Below, piece by piece: positions 365 through 51,691 of a DNA stretch of 64,000 nucleotides; position 1 is the stretch's first letter, and the number at the start of each line of letters is the position of its first letter. The position numbers were made by a program, and so were the translations under genes. The DNA is from Escherichia phage vB_EcoM_011D4, in the sequence record MT478991.1. One strand, given 5' to 3'. The notes under the pieces were generated by a model that saw nothing but the letters and a program-made list of their open reading frames with translations, had not been told where the DNA came from and did not search any database.

Positions 365-372
365 TATAAATA
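365..372 (+). promoter_or_regulatory. T4-type late promoter TATAAATA
   Basis: Exact TATAAATA 29 nt upstream of the gene 34 ATG, followed by AAGGAG RBS. Confidence 0.6.
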
Positions 373-400: not shown

Positions 401-3400
401 ATGGCAGATTTTTCTCAACATTTCAAGGCCACATTTGGCTTTGACGCTGGTAATGAAAAGGTCGTCAATGTAGCATTGGCTGATAAGAATGTCAACACCG
501 ATGCGGTCAACGTTGAATTTTTCAATTACCATAATGGTATTACTCAGTATGACACAACTCGCGGTTATGATCAATACGGAACTACAATCTATCAAAACCG
601 TCCATATTATGCAAAAGAAGATATCACAAAGCCAGCAGGTGATTTTGACCCGACTAAATGGCAAGCACTGCGCACGGACCCACGTTGGGATTATGTTGCA
701 GCAACTTCCGGTGATACTCCTTTACAGTCTGGTGATTATATCGCAGCAGATGGTCAATTTGCAAACTTGACTTTCTCTATGCCAACTAAACCAGCAGAGG
801 GAGACACTATAACAGTAAAAGATATCGGTGGCAAGTGTGGTGTTAACGAATTATCGTTCTTGAGTTCAGGACATGAGTTTTACCATAACGGTAATGTGTA
901 TAACCGAAAATGGTATTGCACTACCCCGTATGCAATGAACTATTTCATCTTTGTTCGTAATCGTTGGCATGTTTATCAGACAGGAACAGAGCCACGCGGT
1001 GTGTATGCACAGCCAGCGATTGATGCTATTCAAATGCAGAATGGTGATCAGGTATTTCGTCGTAGTTCGTTGGGTAATATTACCTTAGTGCTTCCTAAGT
1101 TTGCCAACAATGGCGACATGATCCAGACTACAGACCTTGACGGATTAACCGCAACCAACCACGTTACGGTTAAAGTTCATGAGCACGCAGAAGAACAATC
1201 AATTGGCACGTCCGGTCTAAAAGAGATTATCGGTAAGCGTAGCGGTCATGGTGTATTCATCTTTGACAAGACGGAAAACTTATGGCGTTTGTGGGATGGT
1301 GATCAGTCTGTTCGTCTTAAACCGATCATCGATGACACTCGCTTGCAACCTAATAGCTATGTTGCCGTATTTGGTGATCGTGATGTTACTCTGACGCTGC
1401 CGACCAATGTCGAGCCGGGTGATCGTATTCAAGTTTCTATGCAGTATATGCACGGAAACCAGAATTGCCGTATTATCACCGCCACAGAGGATACAAAAAT
1501 CCTTATGCAGAAAAACATGGTTCAGTTTCCTAAGCGTAGCGAGTACCCATTCAATGGGACCGATACATGGACGGGAGTATCTGAATTGTCTTTCAACGCT
1601 GCAAATGATTATGTACCTTATCTGGAGTTCTCTTATTCAGAAGGTGATGATGGTAAGAAATACTGGTTGGTGGCACATGCTCACCCGATTGTAGAACGAG
1701 TAGATCCGACTCGTAAAGATCGTGTTGGTGTAATTGCACTGGCTACCCAGGATGAAACAAACAAAAACCATGAAGATAATCCTAGCGACGAAGTTGCGGT
1801 GACTCCAAAGGTTCTGGCTAATAAAACAGCCAACGAAACTCGACGCGGTATTGCTCGCATTGCAACTCAAGCGGAAACGCATCAAGATACTGGTTCCAGC
1901 TTCCTGGATGATGTTATCGTTACGCCTAAAAAGTTAAATAATTGTGTTGCTACCGAAGCCCGTCGTGGTGTGATGGAAATTGCAACCCAGCACGAAACCA
2001 ATGAAGGTTTAGACGATACCCGCGCTATTACTCCTAAGAAATTAGAAGAACGTCGCGCTTCCGAAGATCTCGCTGGTATTGCTGAAATTGTTCAGGCTGG
2101 CGGTAGTGCTGCCGCTCGACGTGGCGAAGCTGGTACAGGGATCTATAACATCAACGACCATGCTAAAATTGTTACGCCACAAAACATCAACGAAGTCAAG
2201 GCGACCGAAACTTCCCGTGGTGTTGGCTATCTGGCAACTGACGCGGAAGTGCAAGGGGCTACAGAATCAACCCCGCAAGATGCTTTACTAATCACGACTC
2301 GCACGCTAACGAAACGTACTGCTACCGAATCGCGCACTGGTATCGCTGAAATTGCAACTCAGGAAGAAACAAACTTAGGTCAAAGTGATAACCATATCAT
2401 CACGCCTAAAAAGCTGCATACTCGCCGCGCAACGGAAACTTTACATGGTTTAGCAGAAATTGCAACTCAACCGGAGTTTGACGCAGGTCTTGACGATGCT
2501 CGCATTTCTACCCCATTGAAGATTAAAACCTTCTTTGAGAATGCACAGCGTTTGAAAGTAGATCCGACTCAGGGGCTTAACCTTACTGGTGATTTGTGGC
2601 AAGGTATCATGATTCGCGGTCTGGACGCAACCGAAGACACAAAAGGTGTCGCTAAAGTTGCTACTACTCAGCTTACGGATGCTGGTCAAGATGATACTAC
2701 AATCATCACGCCTAAAAAGCTGCAAGGCAAAAAGGCCACCGAAGGTAAAGAAGGTATTATCCGAGTTGGTACTCAAGCCGAAACCGTGGCTGGTACACTG
2801 GCTAATGTAGCAATTTCTCCGAAGAACTTCAAATATGTTGTTCAGACAGAGGATACATGGAAAGCAACCGAAGCGCGTCGTGGTTTCTTGAAAGTTGCCA
2901 CTCAGGAAAACTGTTTTGTTGGTGATAATCTGCAAGGTTCTACTCAAGAACTAGGAAACTACCAGCATGACGGAATTGCTGTTACTCCGAAAGGATTAAA
3001 CTACGCACTTGCTAATTTCTTACCTAAGATGGCAACCGCTCAGAATAGTTTGAAATTGGGTAACGTAGAGGCCGCTAAATGGGCGCGTAGAGACATTGAC
3101 CAGACCATAGAGAGCAATTACACGTTTAATAAAAACGTTAACGTGAAGGGCGATTTAGGGTGCTTAAAATCTGGTTCCTTTGAAACTCTGTCTGTGACTA
3201 AGAACTCGACCGATGGTCCGAGTAATGGTCATCTGGTGTTGGGTGAGCGTGGAGTTGACGGTCACACCGGAATTACTCTGCATGGCACAACCGCATCGGA
3301 AGGCATGAAAAACTCGTGGTCTATTATCGTTGGTGGTACTGGAACAGCGCAAGTTGTTGATAGTGATGCTATCGCTTTCGGTAAAATCAATGATGGTGGA

Positions 3401-4141
3401 GTCGTCGAGCATTACGCCTTTGCTATGGAACACAATGGCGACGCGACAGCATATAGAGACTTTATTGCAGGTCGTAACCTGTATGCGAAACAAGGCGGTT
3501 TATACATTGTTGATCAGTCTAATCCGGCAATGACTCGTTCCCCAGATGGTATGCTGAATATCGGTCACGGTGGAAGTGTTAACATCAAGGCAGGTTATCA
3601 AACGTTAACTACAGAGATCGCCGGACAGAAATATCAGATCGTACACGCAGGAAACGCTGACGAAGTTCTTAACCGTCAGTTTGTTAAGAATGCTGGCGAT
3701 ACAATGGTCGGTAAGCTGACTATGGATAATGCGCCTATTGTTTCTGTTAAGCATGAAGCTAGCGCGGCAACCGCTCCAGCAATCGGTAACATCGGTTTCT
3801 GGAATATGCGAGTTACTACCCAGAACATCAAAGAAACTTATCCAGAGAAGAAAAACGGTACTCTGATGCAATGGGGTACTGACGCGGACGGGCTTACCCA
3901 GCTTTGGTCCCCTGATGGTACTCATAAACATTATATCCGTTCCGGTACTGGTGGTCAATGGACTGCATGGGGTGAAATTTACACCAAACAGAATAAGCCT
4001 ACCGCTCAGGAAATCGGGGCAGTAGTTGCAGAAGGTGGTTTAATGAACTCTATGACGGTTCGTGATTGGATCAAAGTTGGTAATGTTAAAATCATCGCCA
4101 ATAATCTGACTCGTACCGTAGACTTTATCTGGGAAGACTAA
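401..4141 (+). CDS. 34: long tail fibre proximal subunit gp34 (1246 aa)
   Basis: Size and motifs match T4 gp34 (VTPKxL...ETRRGIARIATQ repeats, ARISTPLKIKT, conserved C-terminus); first gene of 34-35-36-37 module. Confidence 0.93.
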   Translation: MADFSQHFKATFGFDAGNEKVVNVALADKNVNTDAVNVEFFNYHNGITQYDTTRGYDQYGTTIYQNRPYYAKEDITKPAGDFDPTKWQALRTDPRWDYVAATSGDTPLQSGDYIAADGQFANLTFSMPTKPAEGDTITVKDIGGKCGVNELSFLSSGHEFYHNGNVYNRKWYCTTPYAMNYFIFVRNRWHVYQTGTEPRGVYAQPAIDAIQMQNGDQVFRRSSLGNITLVLPKFANNGDMIQTTDLDGLTATNHVTVKVHEHAEEQSIGTSGLKEIIGKRSGHGVFIFDKTENLWRLWDGDQSVRLKPIIDDTRLQPNSYVAVFGDRDVTLTLPTNVEPGDRIQVSMQYMHGNQNCRIITATEDTKILMQKNMVQFPKRSEYPFNGTDTWTGVSELSFNAANDYVPYLEFSYSEGDDGKKYWLVAHAHPIVERVDPTRKDRVGVIALATQDETNKNHEDNPSDEVAVTPKVLANKTANETRRGIARIATQAETHQDTGSSFLDDVIVTPKKLNNCVATEARRGVMEIATQHETNEGLDDTRAITPKKLEERRASEDLAGIAEIVQAGGSAAARRGEAGTGIYNINDHAKIVTPQNINEVKATETSRGVGYLATDAEVQGATESTPQDALLITTRTLTKRTATESRTGIAEIATQEETNLGQSDNHIITPKKLHTRRATETLHGLAEIATQPEFDAGLDDARISTPLKIKTFFENAQRLKVDPTQGLNLTGDLWQGIMIRGLDATEDTKGVAKVATTQLTDAGQDDTTIITPKKLQGKKATEGKEGIIRVGTQAETVAGTLANVAISPKNFKYVVQTEDTWKATEARRGFLKVATQENCFVGDNLQGSTQELGNYQHDGIAVTPKGLNYALANFLPKMATAQNSLKLGNVEAAKWARRDIDQTIESNYTFNKNVNVKGDLGCLKSGSFETLSVTKNSTDGPSNGHLVLGERGVDGHTGITLHGTTASEGMKNSWSIIVGGTGTAQVVDSDAIAFGKINDGGVVEHYAFAMEHNGDATAYRDFIAGRNLYAKQGGLYIVDQSNPAMTRSPDGMLNIGHGGSVNIKAGYQTLTTEIAGQKYQIVHAGNADEVLNRQFVKNAGDTMVGKLTMDNAPIVSVKHEASAATAPAIGNIGFWNMRVTTQNIKETYPEKKNGTLMQWGTDADGLTQLWSPDGTHKHYIRSGTGGQWTAWGEIYTKQNKPTAQEIGAVVAEGGLMNSMTVRDWIKVGNVKIIANNLTRTVDFIWED
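1736..2830 (+). repeat. in-frame tandem ~40-aa repeats inside gp34 ([I/V]TPKKL...RRATE..G[I/V]AEIATQ.ET..G.DD, about 8-9 copies)
   Basis: Repeated peptide motif read in the gp34 translation; approximate nucleotide span. Confidence 0.6.
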
Positions 4142-5355: not shown

Positions 5356-5475
5356 TACAGTTGGTTAAAATGTAACCAAAACGAAGAAAGATCTTTAGAA
5401 TAATAGAAAATTTGTTTCGGTTAAAAAATAGTCAGTGCCTACGGCACGTCGCGAAGCGATATTTTGTTAACATTC

Positions 5476-5483
5476 TATAAATA
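5476..5483 (+). promoter_or_regulatory. T4-type late promoter TATAAATA
   Basis: Exact TATAAATA 34 nt upstream of the gene 36 ATG. Confidence 0.6.
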
Positions 5484-5516
5484 ATCGGAACTATAACTAA
5501 TTTTTGAGGTTACTTT

Positions 5517-7007
5517 ATGGCAGATTTGAAATATGGATCTACTGTAGGTGGATCTCCCATTTGGACGCAAGGAAACTTGACGATCCAGCCAGCGGGGGAT
5601 CAGCTTTTCTACAAAGGTCATAAAATCTATACCGCTTTTGATAGACCTTCGGCTACCGATTTTGATGCTGTTAGTGCATCCGAAGGTGGCACATTTCAAA
5701 AGCAAGTTCATTTCGAGGAAGGTTTAAGCGTAGGTAGCGCATCGGCTGGAGAAACCAAAAAGAATGGTATCTTTAAAGGCCAGAGTGATGCCGCTAATTT
5801 TGACGGCGTAAGCTGGGGTTTGCATTCATGGAAGTCAATCGGCTTTGTTAATGCCCGTGATGGCGTTATTATGGCGTATATTGACACCACAACGGGCGAA
5901 TTTAAGTCTAAAGGGACTATCGAAGGGACAACCATTAAAGACACAGGTCAACGCGTCTATAGCCCTGTTAATAAACCAACGAATAATGATTTAGATTTGG
6001 TGTCTCGTCGCGGTGATACTCTCACAGGAACATATAATTTAAACACTGTCACTGTTAAACTATCGGTTGATTCGAAATTAATTGCAAGGGAACGTGATTT
6101 AATTAATTTTGATGCGACTAAGATCTATTATGGTAACGTTCTTGATACGTTGGTATTCCGAAGTAAAGATGAGCCTACCATTTTTGTTAATGGCAGAGAA
6201 GGTCGTTTTTATCACACCAACAATAAACCAACTAAAGCCGATGTTGGGCTAGGCAATGTCACCAATGATGCACAGGTTAAACGTGCTGGTGATATTATGG
6301 AAGGTAACTTGCAAGCGCCTAGAATGTTGGCGACAAACGATCCTGCTGGTCCTAATGAATTGGTTCGTTTGAGCTACTTTGAGAGAAAATCAATGGTAGC
6401 AAATCCAACCATCATTGGAAACGTTGATTGGAACACTCTTATTAATCGCGGTATCTATCGTGTGGAAAATGCTGGGTCGGGTACTAATAAACCGTCTGAT
6501 AGTTATTATAACGGCGTTTTGATGGTATATCGCCCAGAAGATGCGGTCGGTACTCGTCGAATTGTTCAGGTGTATTATCCTGAATCTATTGATCATCCGA
6601 TGTGCTGGCGTTCGTGTTCTAATGAATCATGGACTGCATGGAACTATGTAGATCACCGTAAATTAGCCGATATTCGCTATGTTAACGTAACTGGCGATAC
6701 CATGACAGGACCGTTAACTGTTCCGGCTGCAAACGGTGTTAGAACAGCTAAAACTAACTATAACGGGGATAACTGTTATGCGGCGTTAAGCGGTGCTGAT
6801 GGTACTGCTATGATTCACCGTATTAGTGATATTAAAGGGACCGAAAAGCTGGGGATCACCCACGACTCAAAGGTCGTGTTTTTCCGTTCTAGAAACAATA
6901 CTCAAACCGTGGACCGCTATCAGCTTTATCATGAAGGCAATAAACCTACTCCGGCTGATGTTGGCGCAGTTCCACTTAATGCGGTGATTGATTTTGGTAC
7001 TTTCTAA
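5517..7007 (+). CDS. 36: long tail fibre distal connector gp36 (496 aa)
   Basis: N-terminus MADLKYGSTVGGSPIWTQGN matches T4 gp36 (MADLKVGSTTGGSVIWHQGN); longer than T4 gp36. Confidence 0.85.
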   Translation: MADLKYGSTVGGSPIWTQGNLTIQPAGDQLFYKGHKIYTAFDRPSATDFDAVSASEGGTFQKQVHFEEGLSVGSASAGETKKNGIFKGQSDAANFDGVSWGLHSWKSIGFVNARDGVIMAYIDTTTGEFKSKGTIEGTTIKDTGQRVYSPVNKPTNNDLDLVSRRGDTLTGTYNLNTVTVKLSVDSKLIARERDLINFDATKIYYGNVLDTLVFRSKDEPTIFVNGREGRFYHTNNKPTKADVGLGNVTNDAQVKRAGDIMEGNLQAPRMLATNDPAGPNELVRLSYFERKSMVANPTIIGNVDWNTLINRGIYRVENAGSGTNKPSDSYYNGVLMVYRPEDAVGTRRIVQVYYPESIDHPMCWRSCSNESWTAWNYVDHRKLADIRYVNVTGDTMTGPLTVPAANGVRTAKTNYNGDNCYAALSGADGTAMIHRISDIKGTEKLGITHDSKVVFFRSRNNTQTVDRYQLYHEGNKPTPADVGAVPLNAVIDFGTF

Positions 7008-26027: not shown

Positions 26028-27419
26028 TCAAATATAGTCTACTCGATACCGCGCACGGGTAACACCCACATATAATAACTGCATTGCCAATTCAAAGTCA
26101 ACATTGTCTGTACACATACAAGGAGTATACAGGAACACGCGGTCTACGCTGATCCCTTGTGACTTATGAATGGTGCAAGCTGGTAATGCTTTTACATTCA
26201 AGAACATACGTTTCATCGTCCAGAAGGAATCCCAATCTGGTTTAAATTTTGGATTCTCTTTCTTCATTTCGCGATATTGTCCGGCGACCGTATTCAGATA
26301 GATAGAGAAAATGTTCTTCTGACGTTGTTCTGTCAGAATGTTGATTTCTACTAAATCCGGTTTATCTGTAGTGATTCCGACTGCATCTAAACCGACTTTC
26401 TGATTTAGGATTTCTTTGTCTTCGTCATCATCGACGCTTTCCACTTTCAGAGTATAGCCTAAAACTGGTTGCGGATCTACCCCCGTGCAACGTAATGTAA
26501 ATTCACGCGGTATAACCTCTTTAACCCGGATCATCTCACCATTGTTAAAAATAACATTGGGAATTTTCTTCCCGCGTTCATCTCGCAGATATTCGATCAA
26601 CGGTTCCTGAGTAACCAGAATTTCATCTACAATCACTGGTTCATCGGTGTTATAAACGCGCTTGCGCACAATTTCATTGAGTTTTTCGACGCTCTTGTTA
26701 GTGTAAGCCAGAATACGGTTTTCTAGAAGGTCTTCCGGCGTTTTAACGGTTTCGAAATAATGCTTCATAAACTCCGGCAGAGTTGAGCTATGGAATACAC
26801 CCTCGTTACCGCACTGCTTTTCGAATACCCATTTACCGTTACGGACAGCGGTCGCCACATCAATGATCGGTGCATTAGATCGTTTAATTTCTGTCAACTC
26901 CACGTTTTGAAAATTTTCATCCGTGAAGAAAGGAGAAATTGACGTTGCACCGCTCGGATCAACTGGTCGTAACTGGTGCGGATCGCCAACTGCAATAACA
27001 ACAATTCGACCGTTGATACTCTTCATGAGAATATCAAATAGTTTCTTATCGACCATACTCGCTTCATCAACAATGATGATCTGAACATCATCTAGCTTAG
27101 GAGTATCTTTTTGCTCAAATACTTGAGTATCTTCATAGTTGGTCGGGTTTAGTCGCAGTAGTGCATGTAAAGTAAATGCTTGACGACCTACCGCTTTACT
27201 CAAAACTTTTTTAGCCTGGTGGGTAGGCGTTGCCAAAACCACACCAGTTACACCACGGCGGACCATTTCCTGAACAATGAATTTCATCATTGCGGTTTTA
27301 CCAGTACCCGCCGCACCACGGACAGTTGTATGCTTCTTTTGTTCAATGCGTTTCATTAGAACATCAAAAGCATGTTTTTGCCCGTCTGTTAACATATCGA
27401 AAGTTAATACTCTGCTCAT
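26028..27419 (-). CDS. dda: Dda DNA helicase (SF1)
   Basis: Strong identity to T4 Dda (LT.GQK.AF...MK, GAAGTGKT, APTH.AKK.LSK, FTNKSV.KLN.I.RK, ALPA.T.HK.QG.SVDR.F.YTPC, LLYVGVTR.RY.V). Confidence 0.93.
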   Translation of the reverse strand: MSRVLTFDMLTDGQKHAFDVLMKRIEQKKHTTVRGAAGTGKTAMMKFIVQEMVRRGVTGVVLATPTHQAKKVLSKAVGRQAFTLHALLRLNPTNYEDTQVFEQKDTPKLDDVQIIIVDEASMVDKKLFDILMKSINGRIVVIAVGDPHQLRPVDPSGATSISPFFTDENFQNVELTEIKRSNAPIIDVATAVRNGKWVFEKQCGNEGVFHSSTLPEFMKHYFETVKTPEDLLENRILAYTNKSVEKLNEIVRKRVYNTDEPVIVDEILVTQEPLIEYLRDERGKKIPNVIFNNGEMIRVKEVIPREFTLRCTGVDPQPVLGYTLKVESVDDDEDKEILNQKVGLDAVGITTDKPDLVEINILTEQRQKNIFSIYLNTVAGQYREMKKENPKFKPDWDSFWTMKRMFLNVKALPACTIHKSQGISVDRVFLYTPCMCTDNVDFELAMQLLYVGVTRARYRVDYI

Positions 27420-44980: not shown

Positions 44981-46006
44981 CTAACTTTTTGCGCTATTTA
45001 CTTCGGCTAAAAGTTCATCAGAGATACGCTTAACTGCCGCAAGTTCTTCCGGTTCTAGGTTTTGTTCTTCCAGATATTCATAGACCATCTGAATAGTGCT
45101 TTTAACTTCAATAACACCTGTTTCCTGTGATGCGCTACTCTCCAGCTTATGGACAACTTTTAGCTTATGCACAACGGCTTCTAACGCGCTTTCTAACTTA
45201 GTTAACCCATTATCAGCGACCGTTGCAATTAGGCGCACACTAAGCCCTTTAAAGCGTTCTACATCGATTTTATCATCTGACGGGTAAGCGATACGCACAT
45301 GATAAGTTTTGTCATTCTGGATAAACTCCTTTTTGTGTGTATCTGTATCGAATACCCAAAAACCACGCGGATCATTTTCGTCGCCAGCCGTTAGTGTGTA
45401 TGGTGTACCGATATACGTTACGTTACCGCCATCACTGATAGTATGAAAGTGACCGGAAAACACTTCACGGTATTTCTTGAGGAAGTCCGCGCTATAACCT
45501 TCGGATTTTAACCCTTTATAGAAATAGTAGCCGGACAATTCCCAATGGCCTACACAATATTCGCTGAATGAATTTTGAATAAACTCTAAAACCTCGGATT
45601 TATTGTCATCACAAAACCACGGGAACAGGTCGAATGATACCCCATCAAAGGTAACTGTTTCCGGCTTATCAATAACCTTAATGCAATCATACTGGCTTAA
45701 CACTTCGCGCGGTGCGTTAGGCTGGATCTTATTGCGTTTAAACATATCATGATTCCCGACCGTGATATAACAGGTGATTCCTGCCTCTTCCAGTAATGGG
45801 ATGACCTTAGTACGGTTAAATTTCATGGTTTCATGTGTGATAGCCTTGCGACAATCAAACCAATCCCCTGTTTGAATCCATATCTTAATACCGTTTTCTT
45901 TAGAATAATCAACAGCTTTCTTGATCGTGTCTAAAATATACTCATGCACCCACGGATCATCGCCACCGATACCAGTATGCAGATCACCCAAAAGCAAAAT
46001 TTTCAT
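44981..46006 (-). CDS. 47: recombination endonuclease subunit gp47 (Mre11/SbcD-like phosphoesterase)
   Basis: N-terminal MKILLLGDLHTG calcineurin-like motif; 341 versus 339 aa in T4. Confidence 0.9.
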   Translation of the reverse strand: MKILLLGDLHTGIGGDDPWVHEYILDTIKKAVDYSKENGIKIWIQTGDWFDCRKAITHETMKFNRTKVIPLLEEAGITCYITVGNHDMFKRNKIQPNAPREVLSQYDCIKVIDKPETVTFDGVSFDLFPWFCDDNKSEVLEFIQNSFSEYCVGHWELSGYYFYKGLKSEGYSADFLKKYREVFSGHFHTISDGGNVTYIGTPYTLTAGDENDPRGFWVFDTDTHKKEFIQNDKTYHVRIAYPSDDKIDVERFKGLSVRLIATVADNGLTKLESALEAVVHKLKVVHKLESSASQETGVIEVKSTIQMVYEYLEEQNLEPEELAAVKRISDELLAEVNSAKS

Positions 46007-46050
46007 AGTCTCTTCCTCTCTTCGTTTTCGATGCTCTCACTATATCATAG

Positions 46051-46085
46051 AAAAATAAAAAGGGAAACCCCTTTCGGAGTCTCCC
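46051..46085 (-). terminator. rho-independent terminator (10-bp stem with two G-U pairs + UUUUUAUUUUU)
   Basis: On the minus strand GGGAGACUCC-gaaa-GGGGUUUCCC then a long U-tract, between 46097..46384 and gene 47. Confidence 0.65.
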
Positions 46086-46096
46086 TTATAAAGCCA

Positions 46097-46384
46097 TTAC
46101 AGCATACTTAATACCGTTTGCCGTGTACTAATCCACATAGCAGAAAGCAGTTCTGGCGTGTGTGGCTGTTTGTAGATATCACGTAACTTTCCGATAGCGT
46201 AGATATACGCATCACGGTTATCATCGATGATAGCTTGTTCAGCCCACCGCTTAAGGCGTGCAATCTCTCGCGAGTTCTTACGCAAGATCTTTTCCGCTTT
46301 CTTAGCGGCTTTAGCCTCTAGTTCTGCTTGTACTTTGTCTACTTCATTCACTGCAATCTGGTCATGCTGTTCATCGTAAGTCAT
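46097..46384 (-). CDS. hypothetical protein (95 aa)
   Basis: ORF track. Confidence 0.5.
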   Translation of the reverse strand: MTYDEQHDQIAVNEVDKVQAELEAKAAKKAEKILRKNSREIARLKRWAEQAIIDDNRDAYIYAIGKLRDIYKQPHTPELLSAMWISTRQTVLSML

Positions 46385-46620
46385 GTTATTTTTCCTTCTG
46401 GGATATAATCAATTATTAAAGAAAATTCATCTTCTGATACATTATAGCTATGTGAGATTGTACCCGTAAAGACCTCAAGATCCGGTGATTTGATATTGCA
46501 CGGATCGATAATCACCGGAACGCCGCAATCTCTCAAAAATAATTTGGCGAAATACGGCACGAGGTCAGTTTCAAACTCTGCTTCTTCCAGCAAACGGGAA
46601 ATGTTAATTTTCAATCTCAT
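46381..46620 (-). CDS. hypothetical protein (79 aa)
   Basis: ORF track. Confidence 0.5.
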
Positions 46621-47137
46621 AAAATTGGTCCAGGCTAGGCAATTCCTCGGTCAATACATCTTCAACCTTTGGCGCTTTCGGTTTATTGACCGATTCCTCG
46701 TAGTTGTTGATTTTATCGTAAATGTCCTGTATGAATGCCTCATCAGCAATCTGGCACATATCAGCGTCGCGTTCGTCATATACATGATGCACAAAATATT
46801 TGTATTTTGCGGCTGTCGCTGTTCTCTCTTTTTTAATGCGCTGTACAAAAGCATTAAAGCACGCTTGCGTGATGTAAGCATGAGGATTTTTATACTTTGT
46901 CTCGTCAAAATTAATCAAACCCTTGACCGCCGCTTCGATTCCGTCGTCGATCATTTCTTCGCGCCATGTTTGACTATAGCCAGAAAAGTTAAAACGTCGT
47001 GATAGATTTTTTGAGATTTGCATAATTGCCAGGCCAATTTGATCGCTCATTGGCACTTGCCGACCTTCGGCTGCAATTCGTTGTTTCCAACGGCAAATTT
47101 CTTCGTAAAGCTCTTTATTGTTTACATAATCAGACAC
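46604..47137 (-). CDS. 55: late-transcription sigma factor gp55
   Basis: Very high identity to T4 gp55 (IGLAIM.I...[52 protein letters not shown]); apparent GTG start with GAGGG RBS. Confidence 0.93.
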
Positions 47138-47177
47138 TTCGCACCCTCGCTATTATTTAGGAAATAACCCTTTCGGG

Positions 47178-48647
47178 CTATTCCCCATTACCATTATACT
47201 TTCTTTGCTTAGTTATCCACACTCTAACCATCTCTACAGATTCGCCGTCAGACGGATCAAGAGTTTTTCCCTTTTTCTTCATGCGGTACTTAAATCCGTT
47301 AAATCTTGCATTCTCTTGTTCGTTAAAGTCGAACATCTTTTTAAATGATTTTCGCCCTTTACGCTCACCACATTCTAGCGGAATCATTCGGTCTGTTATT
47401 ACATTGGCATTAGGTAGAAACGTTTTTAGATAATCTACCAACGCCCAATCAGGAACATATAGATTAACATTCTCCTTGCTCTCGTTGTCTCTCAGGTTAC
47501 AACGCAAACATAATTGAAATGCTGGTTCCAGATAATCAGACACATGACGCGCTTTCAAAAACTCATTTGTTGGAAGATCGCAACTGTGCGCCAATCCTTT
47601 TAAAATGTCAATCTCCCATCGTTGAGGGTTAAAGCTGAACATCACAGCAACATTTTTATGATGAATGTAAGAGTTAAGGCCATAAGATCCGTATGGTATC
47701 CGCTCACCAATACCATTTGTGCACGCTTCACGGTCCCTATTCACGGTATAAATGAAGTCATCACCACATTCATTTTTAACCATATCAACTAGACGTTCAA
47801 AGGTATTGTTTGTTTCTGACTGGTGACGCGACCAGCGTTCGGAGTCCGTCATAAGGATGATATTAACTCTATCTGTATTTTTATACTCTTTGAAATATAG
47901 TCTGGATTCTAGAGCACTCGGAACAAAATCGCAATTTGCATAGTATCGTAGATACTTCCCGCTATATGTATCAAAGAGATTTGCACATGCTATCGTAACC
48001 TTTTTAAAGTCTCCCCATGTACCGTGTTTGTTATCGTTCAAGAAAACAATTTTCGACCCATTCTTCCGGTGTCCTTCGTTATGTTTTACCATAACGTTGA
48101 TTTTCTTCTCTAATAACGCCTCATAAAGCCCTCTAAGAGAAGAATCGATCATATCAGTACCATCCTTTGCACTTTCTATCTTTTCTTTGATAGCGGCCTT
48201 CTCAGAGTCTTTTAGAACTAGGTTCTGTAGACATTCCGATTCGTCGGCGATTGGTTCGCAATGCTTCGTGATAAGTTCAAGATTAGACTTAAACGGATAC
48301 TCATTAAATTCAACCAGTTGAGGAACTTCATCAATGTAAAGAGCATAATCACCAAACATTTTTGAACGTTCCATATTAGATAACGCAGTATGTGTAATGA
48401 ATATCACATCAGCACCGTCTTTAACTGATTGCATTATCGACGCTTGCACTGTCTTAAGGCTTCTTAGTCTTGTGCTATCGATCAAGACAGCACGACCGCC
48501 CATTCTTTTAAACTTATTGTAAGATTGTTCACTTAAAACACGAGATGGCGAAGCAATAACCGCTTTTTCTTTTGTCTCTAGGACGTGGGAAAGTATAGCA
48601 TCAGTTTTCCCCGCCGCTGGCAATGCGATTAATGTTTCAATCTTCAT
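47178..48647 (-). CDS. P-loop NTPase domain protein of unknown function (489 aa)
   Basis: Walker A LPAAGKTD at residues 9-16 and hhhhDE (ALYIDEVPQ) about 90 residues later; remaining ~380 aa without recognisable motifs; basic C-terminus. Confidence 0.6.
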   Translation of the reverse strand: MKIETLIALPAAGKTDAILSHVLETKEKAVIASPSRVLSEQSYNKFKRMGGRAVLIDSTRLRSLKTVQASIMQSVKDGADVIFITHTALSNMERSKMFGDYALYIDEVPQLVEFNEYPFKSNLELITKHCEPIADESECLQNLVLKDSEKAAIKEKIESAKDGTDMIDSSLRGLYEALLEKKINVMVKHNEGHRKNGSKIVFLNDNKHGTWGDFKKVTIACANLFDTYSGKYLRYYANCDFVPSALESRLYFKEYKNTDRVNIILMTDSERWSRHQSETNNTFERLVDMVKNECGDDFIYTVNRDREACTNGIGERIPYGSYGLNSYIHHKNVAVMFSFNPQRWEIDILKGLAHSCDLPTNEFLKARHVSDYLEPAFQLCLRCNLRDNESKENVNLYVPDWALVDYLKTFLPNANVITDRMIPLECGERKGRKSFKKMFDFNEQENARFNGFKYRMKKKGKTLDPSDGESVEMVRVWITKQRKYNGNGE

Positions 48648-48934
48648 TAGAAACCCTTACGTCGTGCTTTCTGGCATTTCTTGATCATTTTATCAGAAAT
48701 TTCGCGCTTAGGTGCAATCTCTTTCACACCGAAAGCACTAATGCCAAATTCAGAGAGAATATATTCAACTAACAATTCACGCACACGCGCTTTACCGATA
48801 TTCACGCCGTTATTTTTCAGATATGTCTGGCCTTCGACTTGCATCAGATCTAAATCTGCGTCGGTAATATTGATTTCTTCCATGCGCCCAAATCGAGAAT
48901 AAACCATGTGTGCGATTGCATTGTGTACTAACAT
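48647..48934 (-). CDS. hypothetical protein (~95 aa), translationally coupled to the P-loop protein
   Basis: Refined ATG at 48934 with GAGGAA RBS; stop overlaps the downstream ATG (TAATG). Confidence 0.5.
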   Translation of the reverse strand: MLVHNAIAHMVYSRFGRMEEINITDADLDLMQVEGQTYLKNNGVNIGKARVRELLVEYILSEFGISAFGVKEIAPKREISDKMIKKCQKARRKGF

Positions 48935-48955
48935 AATATATTCCTCACTCAAGAA

Positions 48956-49114
48956 TTACTTAATGATACTTACTTTACCAGATCCGTGACAATGAGCGCA
49001 ACACCCATCACCACACAATCCTGTTCCGTTACAGTGTTTACACTTCTTCAACGGTAAAGCCATTATAACAAATAAAGCAATAATGAACACCGAAACTAAA
49101 TTCTCAATAATCAT
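48956..49114 (-). CDS. membrane-anchored zinc-finger micro-protein (52 aa) with two DnaJ-type CxxCxGxG repeats
   Basis: Below track cutoff; ATG at 49114 with GAGGG RBS, overlapping the last codons of nrdH; hydrophobic N-terminus then CKHCNGTG..CAHCHGSG. Confidence 0.4.
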   Translation of the reverse strand: MIIENLVSVFIIALFVIMALPLKKCKHCNGTGLCGDGCCAHCHGSGKVSIIK

Positions 49115-49373
49115 AAATCGCCCTCAGTTCTTTATAGCCTCCAATGTGCTCGTTGTCAATGAATATCTGGGGGTATACAAATCGGAGGCTCTTTGAGTTC
49201 AGCCTCCCCGCCAGTTCTTCAATCATATCACGGTCGGGAATAATGTCAACCCCGACCTGCTTGAATACTGGTTTAAGTGTATACGGAATACCCAGATCAT
49301 CCAGTAGCTTCATTGCACCAATACAACCATAACAATGATAAGCCTCTTTCGGTATGCCGTATATCTCGATCAT
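49104..49373 (-). CDS. nrdH: glutaredoxin-like protein NrdH
   Basis: CxxC (YHCYGC) and PQIF..IGG motifs; at the T4 nrdH position. Confidence 0.75.
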   Translation of the reverse strand: MIEIYGIPKEAYHCYGCIGAMKLLDDLGIPYTLKPVFKQVGVDIIPDRDMIEELAGRLNSKSLRFVYPQIFIDNEHIGGYKELRAIYDY

Positions 49374-49846
49374 TTCTCAGCCTTTAATCTTTCTAGTTCT
49401 TCTTCCAGTTCCTTGATCCGTTGGTCACGTTCAAAGTCACGCTGCAACTTAGTGGCGAATACTCGTTTAAACTGATTGTAATCATCGATTTTAAACACTT
49501 CTTCTTCGCCATAGCGACGCACAGAAACTTCGTAGTTATTGAAGAATTGTTGCATCATTGCTTCGGATGATAGTTCTGCTGATACTACTTTAAAATATTG
49601 ATCTTCTGTAGGCGAAAACCAATTACAAGCATAAAGATAAACCTTTTCATTGTCTGGACACTGGTAAGCCTTACCATCGATTTCAATCACAGAAACATAT
49701 TCAGGCATAGTAGATGAATCAATAGCTAAGACTTTAAACTGACGGTCCCCGATAAACTCGGAGATCACACGATTCGCATCACTGGTTGCAAAGGCTTTAC
49801 GCGCTTGTTCGCTTTTCCACTGATAGGTCATACCAACAACAAACAT
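49370..49846 (-). CDS. paralog-family protein (one ~80-aa W..K..[D/E]..YF domain + helical tail)
   Basis: Motifs TYQWK...NWFSPTEDQYFKVV and C-terminal coiled coil. Confidence 0.6.
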   Translation of the reverse strand: MFVVGMTYQWKSEQARKAFATSDANRVISEFIGDRQFKVLAIDSSTMPEYVSVIEIDGKAYQCPDNEKVYLYACNWFSPTEDQYFKVVSAELSSEAMMQQFFNNYEVSVRRYGEEEVFKIDDYNQFKRVFATKLQRDFERDQRIKELEEELERLKAEK

Positions 49847-49847
49847 A

Positions 49848-50672
49848 TTACCAACCTCGCTCTTTACCGATCAAAAATTCAACCTCACGACGTTTAATGT
49901 CTTCTTGAAGGTCTTTAATCTTCTGGCGATCTTGCATGATTTCATCCATCTTGTCAAGTGCTGCAATAAAATCATCGAAACGTTCAAAGGTTTTACCTTC
50001 ATTTGCTTCGCCAAATTTAACCATAGTCAGACCGTAACGACTACTAAACAGACGTTTCAACTGCCCAACGATCTTAGAATCAGTAGTGACGACTTCCAAT
50101 TCTTCTACTTCTTGAAAGAATTTTCTATCAGAATCAATAAACCAGCTAGTTCCTTTATGGTCTTTATCTTCGGTTGCACTCATTAGAGTATGGTCTTTAC
50201 CATCAATTTCAATTACATCAATTTGCCCACATGGACTAACCTTTTTAACAGTAAAAGGTCTATAATTTATTGCTCGTGCAATAACATAATTAAGGTTAGA
50301 TACGTTTTCAGCATAATGACAGAAGTCGGTCATAGCATTCGCATCTTTCCAAGTATAAGTTTTACCAACTTCCCATTTCTGGGGAACTTCTTCAACTTCA
50401 CGAAAGAATTTTCTGTCAGTAGGACTAAAGAAAAATGATGCCGTCCACAATTCATTTTCTGTAACAGAGTCTACCGTATGCTCAACCCCATCGAGTTCTA
50501 TTACATCAATCCAATCGCCATCTTCGACCTTGTTGATGGTAAAAGGCTTATCACCAATAGATTTTCTGATATCGTCATTAAGTGGAGAAAGGCAACCACC
50601 ACCACAATTAACAAAATCTGTTTTAGCTTTTTCATCTTTCCAGGTGTAAGTTTTACCAATTTCCCATTTCAT
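49848..50672 (-). CDS. paralog-family protein (two tandem domains + helical tail)
   Basis: WEIGKTYTWKD...SPTDRKFFREV and WEVGKTYTWKD...DSDRKFFQEV. Confidence 0.6.
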   Translation of the reverse strand: MKWEIGKTYTWKDEKAKTDFVNCGGGCLSPLNDDIRKSIGDKPFTINKVEDGDWIDVIELDGVEHTVDSVTENELWTASFFFSPTDRKFFREVEEVPQKWEVGKTYTWKDANAMTDFCHYAENVSNLNYVIARAINYRPFTVKKVSPCGQIDVIEIDGKDHTLMSATEDKDHKGTSWFIDSDRKFFQEVEELEVVTTDSKIVGQLKRLFSSRYGLTMVKFGEANEGKTFERFDDFIAALDKMDEIMQDRQKIKDLQEDIKRREVEFLIGKERGW

Positions 50673-50684
50673 AATATATTCCCC

Positions 50685-51149
50685 TTAACCGATTTTATCA
50701 AGTTCGTTTAATGCTTTCTCTGCTTCCTGTATAGCTTGCACCCTTTCCGGCATTTTGTCAAGAAAATCTTTCAACTCTTCAAAACTGGAGATATGACGCA
50801 AGGCGTTAGCACCGATAGCCGCATGTGATTTGCATTCAAAGCGGATTTTATAATTATCCATCGCCAACTTGAGAAGATCAATTAATTTAGATTCTTCTGG
50901 AATAATAATTTCTTCAAATCTGCTACGGTCATGATCCAGAAACCAACAAGATAGACCTACATCGGTTGAACTAATATAAGTTCCATCATGAAGATAAACA
51001 GACCGCACGTATCCTTTTTTCGCATCAACCGACGCAACTTTAAACGGTAATCTCAGATATTTCAAATAATCAACATCATACCATTTAAAAAATTGGTTTG
51101 CATCTTTTACATCTTTCCACGCATAGGTCTTACCAGCTTCCCATTTCAT
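50685..51149 (-). CDS. paralog-family protein (one domain + helical tail)
   Basis: Refined ATG at 51149; WEAGKTYAWKD...DHDRSRFEEI. Confidence 0.6.
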   Translation of the reverse strand: MKWEAGKTYAWKDVKDANQFFKWYDVDYLKYLRLPFKVASVDAKKGYVRSVYLHDGTYISSTDVGLSCWFLDHDRSRFEEIIIPEESKLIDLLKLAMDNYKIRFECKSHAAIGANALRHISSFEELKDFLDKMPERVQAIQEAEKALNELDKIG

Positions 51150-51153
51150 AATA

Positions 51154-51681
51154 TCATCTCTCATTTTTGATACGTGATTCTAATTGGATCATACGGTCGC
51201 GCGTTTGCTTGTATTCTCGGATAGCACCGATCCGGCTAGGCATACCATCAAGCACGCTCTTAATACCTTCTAGGGTAGTAATTTTGGCAATGCTATTATG
51301 TAACCCCATCTTATCGATCAACTGAATGTCGTAGGCTTCCATAAGCAGACCCAGGCGTTCTAAAGTTAGGTCTTCTTCTTTTTCTTCCGAATCTGGAATC
51401 TTAGGTTCAATAGTAACTTCGGTAAAGAAACGACGCTCACCCGACCAAAACCACACACCGGAACAGCCAATAGGGGATTCTTTTAACGTCATAGAGTCGA
51501 AATTACTACCAATAATAGTAATTTCTCTAACATCACCATCATCGTCAAGGTCTTCTACCCTAAACGGGCGACCAGCCAACAAGTCAACAATACATCTGTT
51601 AATAGACGACGAAAATTTAGTCAGTTCGGCTTTCGACGCTTCGCATTCAATCTTGTAAGTTTTACCAACTTCCCATTCCAT
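51154..51681 (-). CDS. paralog-family protein (one domain + helical tail)
   Basis: Refined ATG at 51681 with GAGGTGA RBS; WEVGKTYKIE...SGERRFFTEV. Confidence 0.6.
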   Translation of the reverse strand: MEWEVGKTYKIECEASKAELTKFSSSINRCIVDLLAGRPFRVEDLDDDGDVREITIIGSNFDSMTLKESPIGCSGVWFWSGERRFFTEVTIEPKIPDSEEKEEDLTLERLGLLMEAYDIQLIDKMGLHNSIAKITTLEGIKSVLDGMPSRIGAIREYKQTRDRMIQLESRIKNER

Positions 51682-51691
51682 AATAATCACC

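Follow-up and report, generated by a model that had tools for sequence, protein, structure and literature searches.

We analysed a 64,000-nucleotide (nt) stretch of Escherichia phage vB_EcoM_011D4 (record MT478991.1; hereafter, the window), in which two overlapping open reading frames (ORFs) on the minus strand, between positions 47178 and 48934, encode proteins of 95 and 489 amino acids (aa). A preliminary description, made from the letters of the DNA, had presented them as a two-gene operon of a small protein and a P-loop ATPase, standing where phage T4 carries its alpha-glucosyltransferase gene (a-gt), and had suggested an anti-defence or DNA-modification architecture. Here we show that the 489-aa protein belongs to helicase superfamily 2 (SF2), with a predicted fold nearest to that of XPD and DinG, and that the 95-aa protein is, judged by homology, the ortholog of T4 gp55.2. 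The genes concerned are as follows.

47178..48647, minus strand: ORF of the 489-aa SF2 helicase-like ATPase (ortholog of RB49p044/RB49ORF044c; phrog_2467), from the ORF, homology and fold
48647..48934, minus strand: 95-aa gp55.2 ortholog (DUF7570), from Pfam, PHROG and BLASTP
48645..48649, minus strand: TAATG stop/start overlap of 55.2 and the helicase gene, read from the sequence
46604..47137, minus strand: gene 55, for the late sigma factor, which follows downstream and is co-directional, from phrog_234 and identity to T4

Both ORFs, the Walker A motif LPAAGKTD (residues 9-16), the Walker B motif ALYIDEV (residues 102-108) and the TAATG overlap, all of which had been described earlier, were confirmed by translation and by reading the sequence. 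At the junction (TTTC-TAATG-AAG) the stop codon of the small gene shares 1 nt with the ATG of the 489-aa gene, and a GAGG Shine-Dalgarno sequence lies 8 nt 5' of the ATG of the 95-aa gene. The 489-aa ORF is separated from gene 55 by 40 nt and is thus immediately upstream of it, as had been stated. The product of gene 55 matched phrog_234, late sigma factor (E 4.8e-63), and showed 61% identity to T4 gp55. The plus strand opposite the locus carries merely short ORFs of 41-73 aa. Both ORFs are far beyond chance; in 243 phage records the 489-aa protein is conserved along its whole length, and its motifs are invariant among close and distant relatives. Bases 46000-50000 of the window were 98.2-98.4% identical to RB49, JSE, GEC-3S, Cognac and others, by which the phage is assigned to Krischvirus as an RB49-like, T4-type phage.

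The 489-aa protein matched phrog_2467 (function unknown) with an E value of 5e-175. T4-related phages of Aeromonas, Proteus, Morganella, Serratia, Providencia, Erwinia, Cronobacter, Citrobacter, Enterobacter and Klebsiella, as well as RB43/RB16, were found to have full-length homologs of 31-74% identity. Most of the 243 records carrying a homolog label it 'hypothetical protein'; at least one GenBank record names the gene 'putative helicase', and distant relatives are named just 'hypothetical' or 'DEAD/DEAH box helicase family protein'. The sole mention of RB49ORF044c that we found in the literature was by Nolan et al. (2006), who listed a weak Pfam DEAD match with an E value of 0.069. When 1.84 billion representative proteins, a set clustered at 50% identity, were searched with a profile, 1,329 matched at E<=1e-3 and 765 at E<=1e-10. 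The members identifiable here are almost all phage-encoded, and the relatives form two size classes of about 470-560 aa and 750-890 aa. The proteins of phrog_2467 and phrog_31024, gp191 of Agrobacterium phage Atu_ph07 and the 'Helicase/UvrB N-terminal domain protein' of Ralstonia phage phiRSL1 belong to the same family and carry the same invariant motifs, none of them being of known function. The motifs lie at the following positions.

48603..48620, minus strand: motif I (Walker A), PAAGKT, aa 10-15, by translation
48522..48554, minus strand: motif Ia-like ASPSRVLSEQS, by translation
48321..48341, minus strand: motif II (Walker B), LYIDEVP, with IDEVP at aa 105-109, by translation
47979..47996, minus strand: motif III-like TIACAN, by translation; its A222 is conserved in 166 of 183 sequences
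47673..47693, minus strand: motif V-like YGSYGLN, by position and conservation
47490..47516, minus strand: motif VI, QLCLRCNLR, by position and conservation

Conservation was scored over a wide family of 189 collected members (193 aligned matches) and over a close set of 42 sequences. In the wide family, K14 was present in 173/173 and G13 in 171/173, D106 and E107 each in 185/185, N303 in 179/186, G323 and N325 each in 186/186, and Q378, R382 and R386 each in 187/187. The Walker A, DE, G-x-N and Q-x3-R-x3-R residues were invariant in the 42 close and in about 170-187 distant relatives, the spacing of the last being one residue off the canonical QxxGRxxR. Far from being lost in orthologs, the Walker motifs are strictly conserved. 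From this conservation and from the position of the residues in the predicted secondary structure, we infer that they represent SF2 motifs I, II, V and VI, and the intact motifs suggest that the helicase is catalytically competent. The protein thus combines a conserved GKT and DExx, two RecA lobes and motif V/VI residues, and is an SF2 protein. The earlier view of a RecA-like or helicase P-loop motor was accordingly borne out, both by the conserved motifs and by the SF2 fold.

An AlphaFold model was built from a 42-sequence alignment, with a predicted local distance difference test score (pLDDT) of 87.7 and a predicted template-modelling score (pTM) of 0.75. It divides the protein into the following parts.

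48318..48647, minus strand: N-terminal part of RecA-like lobe 1 (aa 1-110), holding motifs I, Ia and II
48003..48317, minus strand: insertion (aa 111-215, about 105 aa) separating motif II from the motif III-like segment, at the Arch position of XPD/DinG
47868..48002, minus strand: C-terminal part of RecA-like lobe 1 (aa 216-260), from the model and translation
47388..47867, minus strand: RecA-like lobe 2 (aa 261-420), of alternating strand and helix, from the model and conservation
47181..47387, minus strand: basic helical C-terminal tail (aa 421-489, net charge +7), common to the T4-related clade, from the model

The some 380 aa of C-terminal sequence that had been taken as unrecognised, and as a possible effector domain, therefore resolve into the insertion, the rest of lobe 1 and lobe 2 (residues 111-420), followed by a 69-aa tail. 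Three helices form the C-terminal end of the model. When the model was compared with the PDB by Foldseek, the top 20 matches were all DinG, CasDinG or XPD entries (E 1.4e-10 to 5e-7), and the predicted fold is shared with phage relatives in BFVD (template-modelling score 0.67-0.79, top 5). A sequence search of the PDB with the single protein or with the close-family profile yielded nothing useful. In 168 family members, motif II and the motif III-like xAN were 97-137 aa apart, with a median of 115.

The protein resembles XPD, Rad3 and DinG in its two RecA lobes, in the lobe 1 insertion at the Arch position and in its overall fold, to which theirs is the nearest. Unlike them, it has no N-terminal accessory domain, its P-loop beginning at residue 10; its motif II is DEVP and not DEAH, and its motif VI has the Q-x3-R-x3-R spacing. 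The median spacing of motifs I and II (about 96 aa) is too short for an inserted domain and there is no cysteine in aa 1-110, so an iron-sulphur (Fe-S) domain, even a vestigial one, is absent. Loss of the cluster has a precedent in this fold class, since CasDinG of type IV CRISPR is described as having an Fe-S domain that is only vestigial (PMC10450177). Since by sequence the family is no more than generic SF2, we file the helicase as an SF2 protein with XPD/DinG-like architecture and not as a member of the DinG family.

The net charge of +7 over the last 69 residues agrees with the basic C-terminal tail described earlier, and it is plausible that this tail binds DNA. Its residues E445 and W477 are invariant in the T4-related clade. 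In many long relatives the profile match ends near positions 405-460. In three of the relatives an HTH_23 domain follows directly after the core (P0062, P0080 and P0105; 26.7-29.6 bits, cutoff 24.6), while a fourth, P0082, scored 20.8 bits, below the cutoff; tails of this type occur in about 12 of 187 relatives (approximately 6%). A helix-turn-helix (HTH) nature of the tail of the window protein was considered and found unsupported, as the T4-clade tail had no Pfam HTH match and a profile probability of 0.5% when aligned by hhalign to the HTH_23 tails. Of the collected relatives, about a quarter (within P0063-P0189) are 750-890 aa long with a C-terminal extension of about 350 aa, in which no Pfam domain was detected, and one relative gave a weak match to Herpes_ori_bp (E 0.0014). 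The helicase family may include site-specific DNA-binding helicases. The 799-aa relative P0043 lies on a 5.9-kb contig with uninformative neighbours, and for the bacterial homolog P0054 no locus was confirmed in a scan of bacterial genomes.

The small protein matched Pfam DUF7570 (99.5 bits, cutoff 27) and phrog_1475 (E 8.6e-33), and aligned by BLASTP with T4 gp55.2, a member of the same Pfam family, at 42% identity over the whole length (E 7e-20). The gene has already been annotated 'gp55.2' in RB49, JSE and Phi1, and it stands in the orthologous position, between nrdH and gene 55. The two proteins differ in length, 95 aa in Krischvirus as against 108 aa in T4, and the two loci differ in what follows, which is the 87-aa gene 55.1 in T4 and the helicase gene here. 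T4 gp55.2 binds both double- and single-stranded DNA and prevents E. coli topoisomerase I from relaxing negative supercoils; its over-expression is toxic, the gene is non-essential and confers a fitness gain of about 16% per cycle, and its mRNA has been characterised as early (PMC4396842). By extrapolation from the T4 protein, the Krischvirus ortholog may inhibit topoisomerase I as well.

In T4 the genes are transcribed in the order nrdG, 55.8, nrdH, 55.6-55.3, 55.2, 55.1, 55, then a-gt.5, a-gt.4, a-gt.3, a-gt.2, mobB, a-gt, 47.1 and 47. Among the window proteins, matches were obtained for T4 a-gt.4, a-gt.5, 55, 55.2, nrdH and nrdG, and none for a-gt, mobB, 55.1, 55.3-55.8 and 47.1. It had thus been rightly noted that alpha-gt is absent from the window, and the 489-aa protein is indeed without a T4 counterpart; the statement that this position holds alpha-gt in T4 was, however, mistaken. 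The 489-aa gene occupies the slot of 55.1 between 55.2 and 55, whereas the a-gt slot is on the downstream side of gene 55, where the window has the a-gt.5 and a-gt.4 homologs, a 90-nt spacer and a terminator-like hairpin. The lack of a-gt and the variable nature of a slot between conserved genes would favour a module that replaces the glucosyltransferase, but the helicase does not lie in the a-gt slot. Moreover, Erwinia phage Cronus has the helicase upstream and an alpha-glucosyltransferase downstream of gene 55, and the two are therefore not alternatives. On the same downstream side, gene 47 and a-gt.4 of RB49 are separated by a homing-endonuclease gene of the HNH/AP2 kind, RB49p040 (5450..6004 of our RB49 locus, L001). 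The equivalent site in the window is just 90 nt (46007..46096), with a hairpin at 46060..46087, and the window phage is thus an RB49 relative without that mobile element.

DNA modification as such was also considered. The helicase is present across phages with differing sets of modification genes, namely RB49, in which no a-gt was found, Aeromonas phage 25, with gene 42 and no glucosyltransferase, and Cronus with its alpha-gt (PMC2993671). A correlation of the helicase with unmodified DNA was rejected. Searches with PADLOC and NCBIfam models, among which there was no anti-defence-specific library, gave no meaningful match.

We surveyed the synteny of the two genes in 29 T4-related loci from IMG/VR. 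In 28 of them a 55.2 homolog stood upstream of the helicase, right next to it in 21 and at a distance of 0.8-2.0 kb in 7. The survey proposed earlier thus upheld the pairing in the majority of loci and failed to do so in the 7 in which the genes are separated and in the one (L028) in which 55.2 was undetected, three unrelated small ORFs being present instead. Five small ORFs stand between 55.2 and the helicase in Cronus, and two genes in Aeromonas phage 25. Gene 55 directly follows the helicase in 21 of the 29 loci; it is not downstream in RB43/RB16-type loci, RB16 having gene 34 there. In Tulanevirus-type Aeromonas phages the helicase start is overlapped not by 55.2 but by a 191-aa phrog_768 gene, 'DprA-like DNA recombination mediator' (E 6e-66), located at 2929..3504 of the Aeromonas phage 25 locus L003 and found also in L018, L019, L020 and L036; this neighbour is possibly informative. 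No 55.2 was found near the distant helicase relatives of Atu_ph07 and PH357. By tblastn, 55.2 homologs were found in 1,092 phage records, mostly of Tequatrovirus type without the helicase, as against 243 records with the helicase. Since 55.2 is so widespread in T4-type phages, its place beside the helicase may reflect functional coupling or just a shared backbone, and does not tell the two apart.

The pair is part of a long co-directional cluster in the order nrdG-nrdH-55.2-[helicase]-55-a-gt.5-a-gt.4-47-46, which forms an early-type DNA-metabolism block. Between the 178-aa ORF and gene 47 of the window, neighbouring genes overlap at 6 of 11 junctions, so the TAATG overlap is typical of the cluster and is no mark of a special pair. 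The idea of a two-gene operon therefore stands as regards the overlap and falls as regards its limit to two genes. The 55.2 and helicase genes are not an obligate two-component system; they share a conserved block and an overlap, and make up a fairly ordinary part of the early DNA-metabolism gene block. Identity between T4-related lineages is 35-42% for the helicase, broadly similar to that of gp55 (34-63%) and NrdH (27-52%), and the guanine-plus-cytosine (GC) content is flat across the locus at 0.39-0.42. This similar divergence and uniform composition suggest that the helicase gene is a long resident of the T4-type backbone and not a recent cassette; a recent horizontal insertion is unsupported on the same two counts.

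Some neighbours of the pair were recorded in passing. Just upstream of 55.2 lies the 52-aa ORF RB49p046 (48956..49114, minus strand; phrog_3931, function unknown), whose hydrophobic N-terminal segment precedes CKHCNGTG...CAHCHGSG, a pair of CxxCxGxG repeats that may be read as the zinc-knuckle type of the DnaJ zinc-finger domain. Between nrdG and nrdH, the genes RB49p048-051 encode in succession proteins of 158, 274, 159 and 178 aa (49370..51690, minus strand; function unknown), which are paralogs of each other, aligning over long stretches at 26-29% identity (E 1e-9 to 1e-13). At their start stands a W(E/K)xGKTYxWKD-type module, present in two copies in the 274-aa protein, giving a five-copy tandem array.

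The following RNA structure was found at the end of the helicase gene.

47158..47187, minus strand: 13-bp RNA hairpin with a GAAA loop over the helicase stop codon, minimum free energy -19.2 kcal/mol

This hairpin was more stable than expected (z = -4.97; none of 200 shuffles was as stable) and precedes the GTG start codon of gene 55 by 21 nt. As no U-tract comes after it, the hairpin does not qualify as a canonical terminator; it could serve in the processing or stability of the mRNA, or act as an attenuator that sets the expression of gene 55. Just one strong terminator-like site was detected on the coding strand, after a-gt.4 (46060..46087). The T4 late-promoter motif TATAAATA was absent from the helicase region and from the minus-strand early-type block. 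It occurs just twice in the 64-kb window, at 365..372 and 5476..5483 on the plus strand, at the left end among large plus-strand ORFs.

Taken together, the motifs and the predicted fold make it rather probable that the 489-aa protein is an SF2 helicase or translocase, serving the phage as an accessory DNA motor with a probable 5'->3' movement on single-stranded DNA (ssDNA). We infer its substrate (DNA rather than RNA), its polarity, the timing of its expression and its biological role as follows. In the nrdH-55.2-55 block, the helicase would be expressed along with the pre-replicative genes. Using ATP, it would translocate on phage ssDNA, probably 5'->3' as XPD and DinG do, and the fold suggests an XPD/DinG-like threading of the single strand. 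It may thereby unwind or clear duplexes, D-loops or R-loops, or remove proteins in its way, when phage DNA is replicated, recombined or repaired or when transcription and replication conflict, while the gp55.2 ortholog would tune host topoisomerase I independently. Dda (superfamily 1B) and UvsW (SF2) of T4, both of them non-essential, have an accessory role of this kind, in removing obstacles or in processing R-loops and branched DNA. Separate genes of the window code for a Dda-like helicase (26028..27419), the replicative helicase gp41, primase, UvsX, DNA polymerase and both large topoisomerase II subunits. The 489-aa helicase is therefore an addition to the Dda-like and gp41 helicases and not a substitute for them, and it is unrelated to the former.

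Several observations weigh against this reading. XPD-like unwinding and 5'->3' polarity are not simply transferable to a helicase in which the Fe-S wedge is absent. At the level of sequence, a 36-member family profile matched PDB entries over lobe 1 only (DDX52 at E 1.7e-5, reverse gyrase, NS3 and XPB), and hhalign gave probabilities of 82% for E. coli RhlE, 83% for UvrB and 20% for DinG; the UvrB and DinG matches were confined to motif I/Ia, that to DinG covering 44 columns. In 36 diverse members at E<=1, none of Pfam DEAD_2, Helicase_C_2 and Helicase_C was among the listed matches. Sigma-70-like promoter matches were not enriched (30, as against 26.2 +/- 5.6 in shuffles), so that none was assigned as a promoter, and the timing of helicase expression is extrapolated from T4. 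In the literature we found no biochemical or genetic data for any member of the helicase family.

The absence of the strand-splitting wedge of XPD also bears on a different proposal, that the protein is a translocase or remodeller of double-stranded DNA (dsDNA) of the Snf2/Ino80 or HsdR/ResIII type, which would strip or reposition proteins, or serve a separate nuclease, with no unwinding. The ResIII matches point the same way, being above threshold in 11 of the 36 relatives and in several long forms. However, the fold matched such proteins less strongly, and over shorter stretches, than XPD/DinG, signatures of Snf2_N, HsdR or nucleases were not detected, and no nuclease or methylase neighbour is conserved in the T4-related loci. 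We therefore consider a dsDNA translocase unlikely.

A further proposal, that the protein is an RNA helicase or chaperone (DEAD-box or DExH type) working on transcripts of phage or host, for instance in mRNA decay, in translation or on R-loop RNA, draws its support from sequence comparison. DEAD was the sole Pfam match above threshold for the 489-aa protein (27.3 bits, cutoff 26; residues 11-130, lobe 1 only) and was matched in 23 of the 36 relatives; DDX52 was the best PDB match, and the profile probability was far higher for RhlE than for DinG. Against this, the details of the protein depart from those of DEAD-box RNA helicases. Nine residues precede the P-loop, leaving no space for a Q motif; DEVP stands for DEAD in motif II; at the motif III position (T)IAxAN, TIACAN in the window protein, is found in place of SAT; Helicase_C was unmatched in all 36 members; and DEAD-box proteins have no insertion like that of 115 aa which parts motif II from motif III. 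An RNA helicase is, on this balance, quite unlikely.

As an extension of the preferred reading of an accessory DNA helicase, gp55.2 and the helicase might be functionally linked as a pair that manages supercoiling and R-loops, though we hold this link to be very doubtful. In such a pair, gp55.2 would coat the DNA and block topoisomerase I, so that negative supercoiling, R-loops and ssDNA would be favoured, and the basic tail would guide the Fe-S-less helicase to exploit or resolve these R-loop and ssDNA structures, for example by clearing the path of phage forks of R-loops and stalled RNA polymerase. Alternatively, the helicase could open DNA for the initiation of replication in phages like RB49, in which neither MotA nor middle promoters were found. 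A replacement of MotA-dependent functions by the helicase was examined separately: MotA was not found in RB49, RB43 and Aeh1 and is present in 44RR (PMC1524935), while phage 25, closely related to 44RR, carries the helicase, annotated 'similar to 44RRORF048c', so that there is no clean anticorrelation. If the pair were linked, it would represent a new minimal class of XPD-like helicase working without an Fe-S wedge.

The anti-defence or DNA-modification architecture suggested at first, in the form of a dedicated module of a gp55.2-like protein and an ATPase replacing the T4 alpha-glucosyltransferase, has in its favour the TAATG overlap, the direct adjacency in 21 of 29 loci, the variable slot and the missing a-gt, but is most improbable, for the overlap is commonplace in the cluster, the helicase stands outside the a-gt slot and coexists with a-gt in Cronus, the small partner is a gp55.2 ortholog far more widespread than the helicase and working alone in T4 (PMC4396842), 55.2 is distant, undetected or lacking near other helicases of the family, no effector domain and no meaningful match to PADLOC or NCBIfam models was found, and the family spans phages with differing DNA-modification genes (PMC2993671).

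The finding opens no new class of system and has no bearing on DNA glucosylation. In annotation, the label of SF2 helicase with XPD/DinG-like fold can be given to RB49p044-like genes (phrog_2467), and that of ortholog of the topoisomerase I inhibitor gp55.2 to the 95-aa gene. The helicase belongs to an unstudied family of more than 1,300 clusters at 50% identity, in which the catalytic residues and an insertion at the Arch position are kept and the Fe-S domain is lacking. This family could show how an XPD-like motor acts without the wedge, and what an extra helicase adds to many T4-type phages that already possess Dda-like and gp41 helicases.

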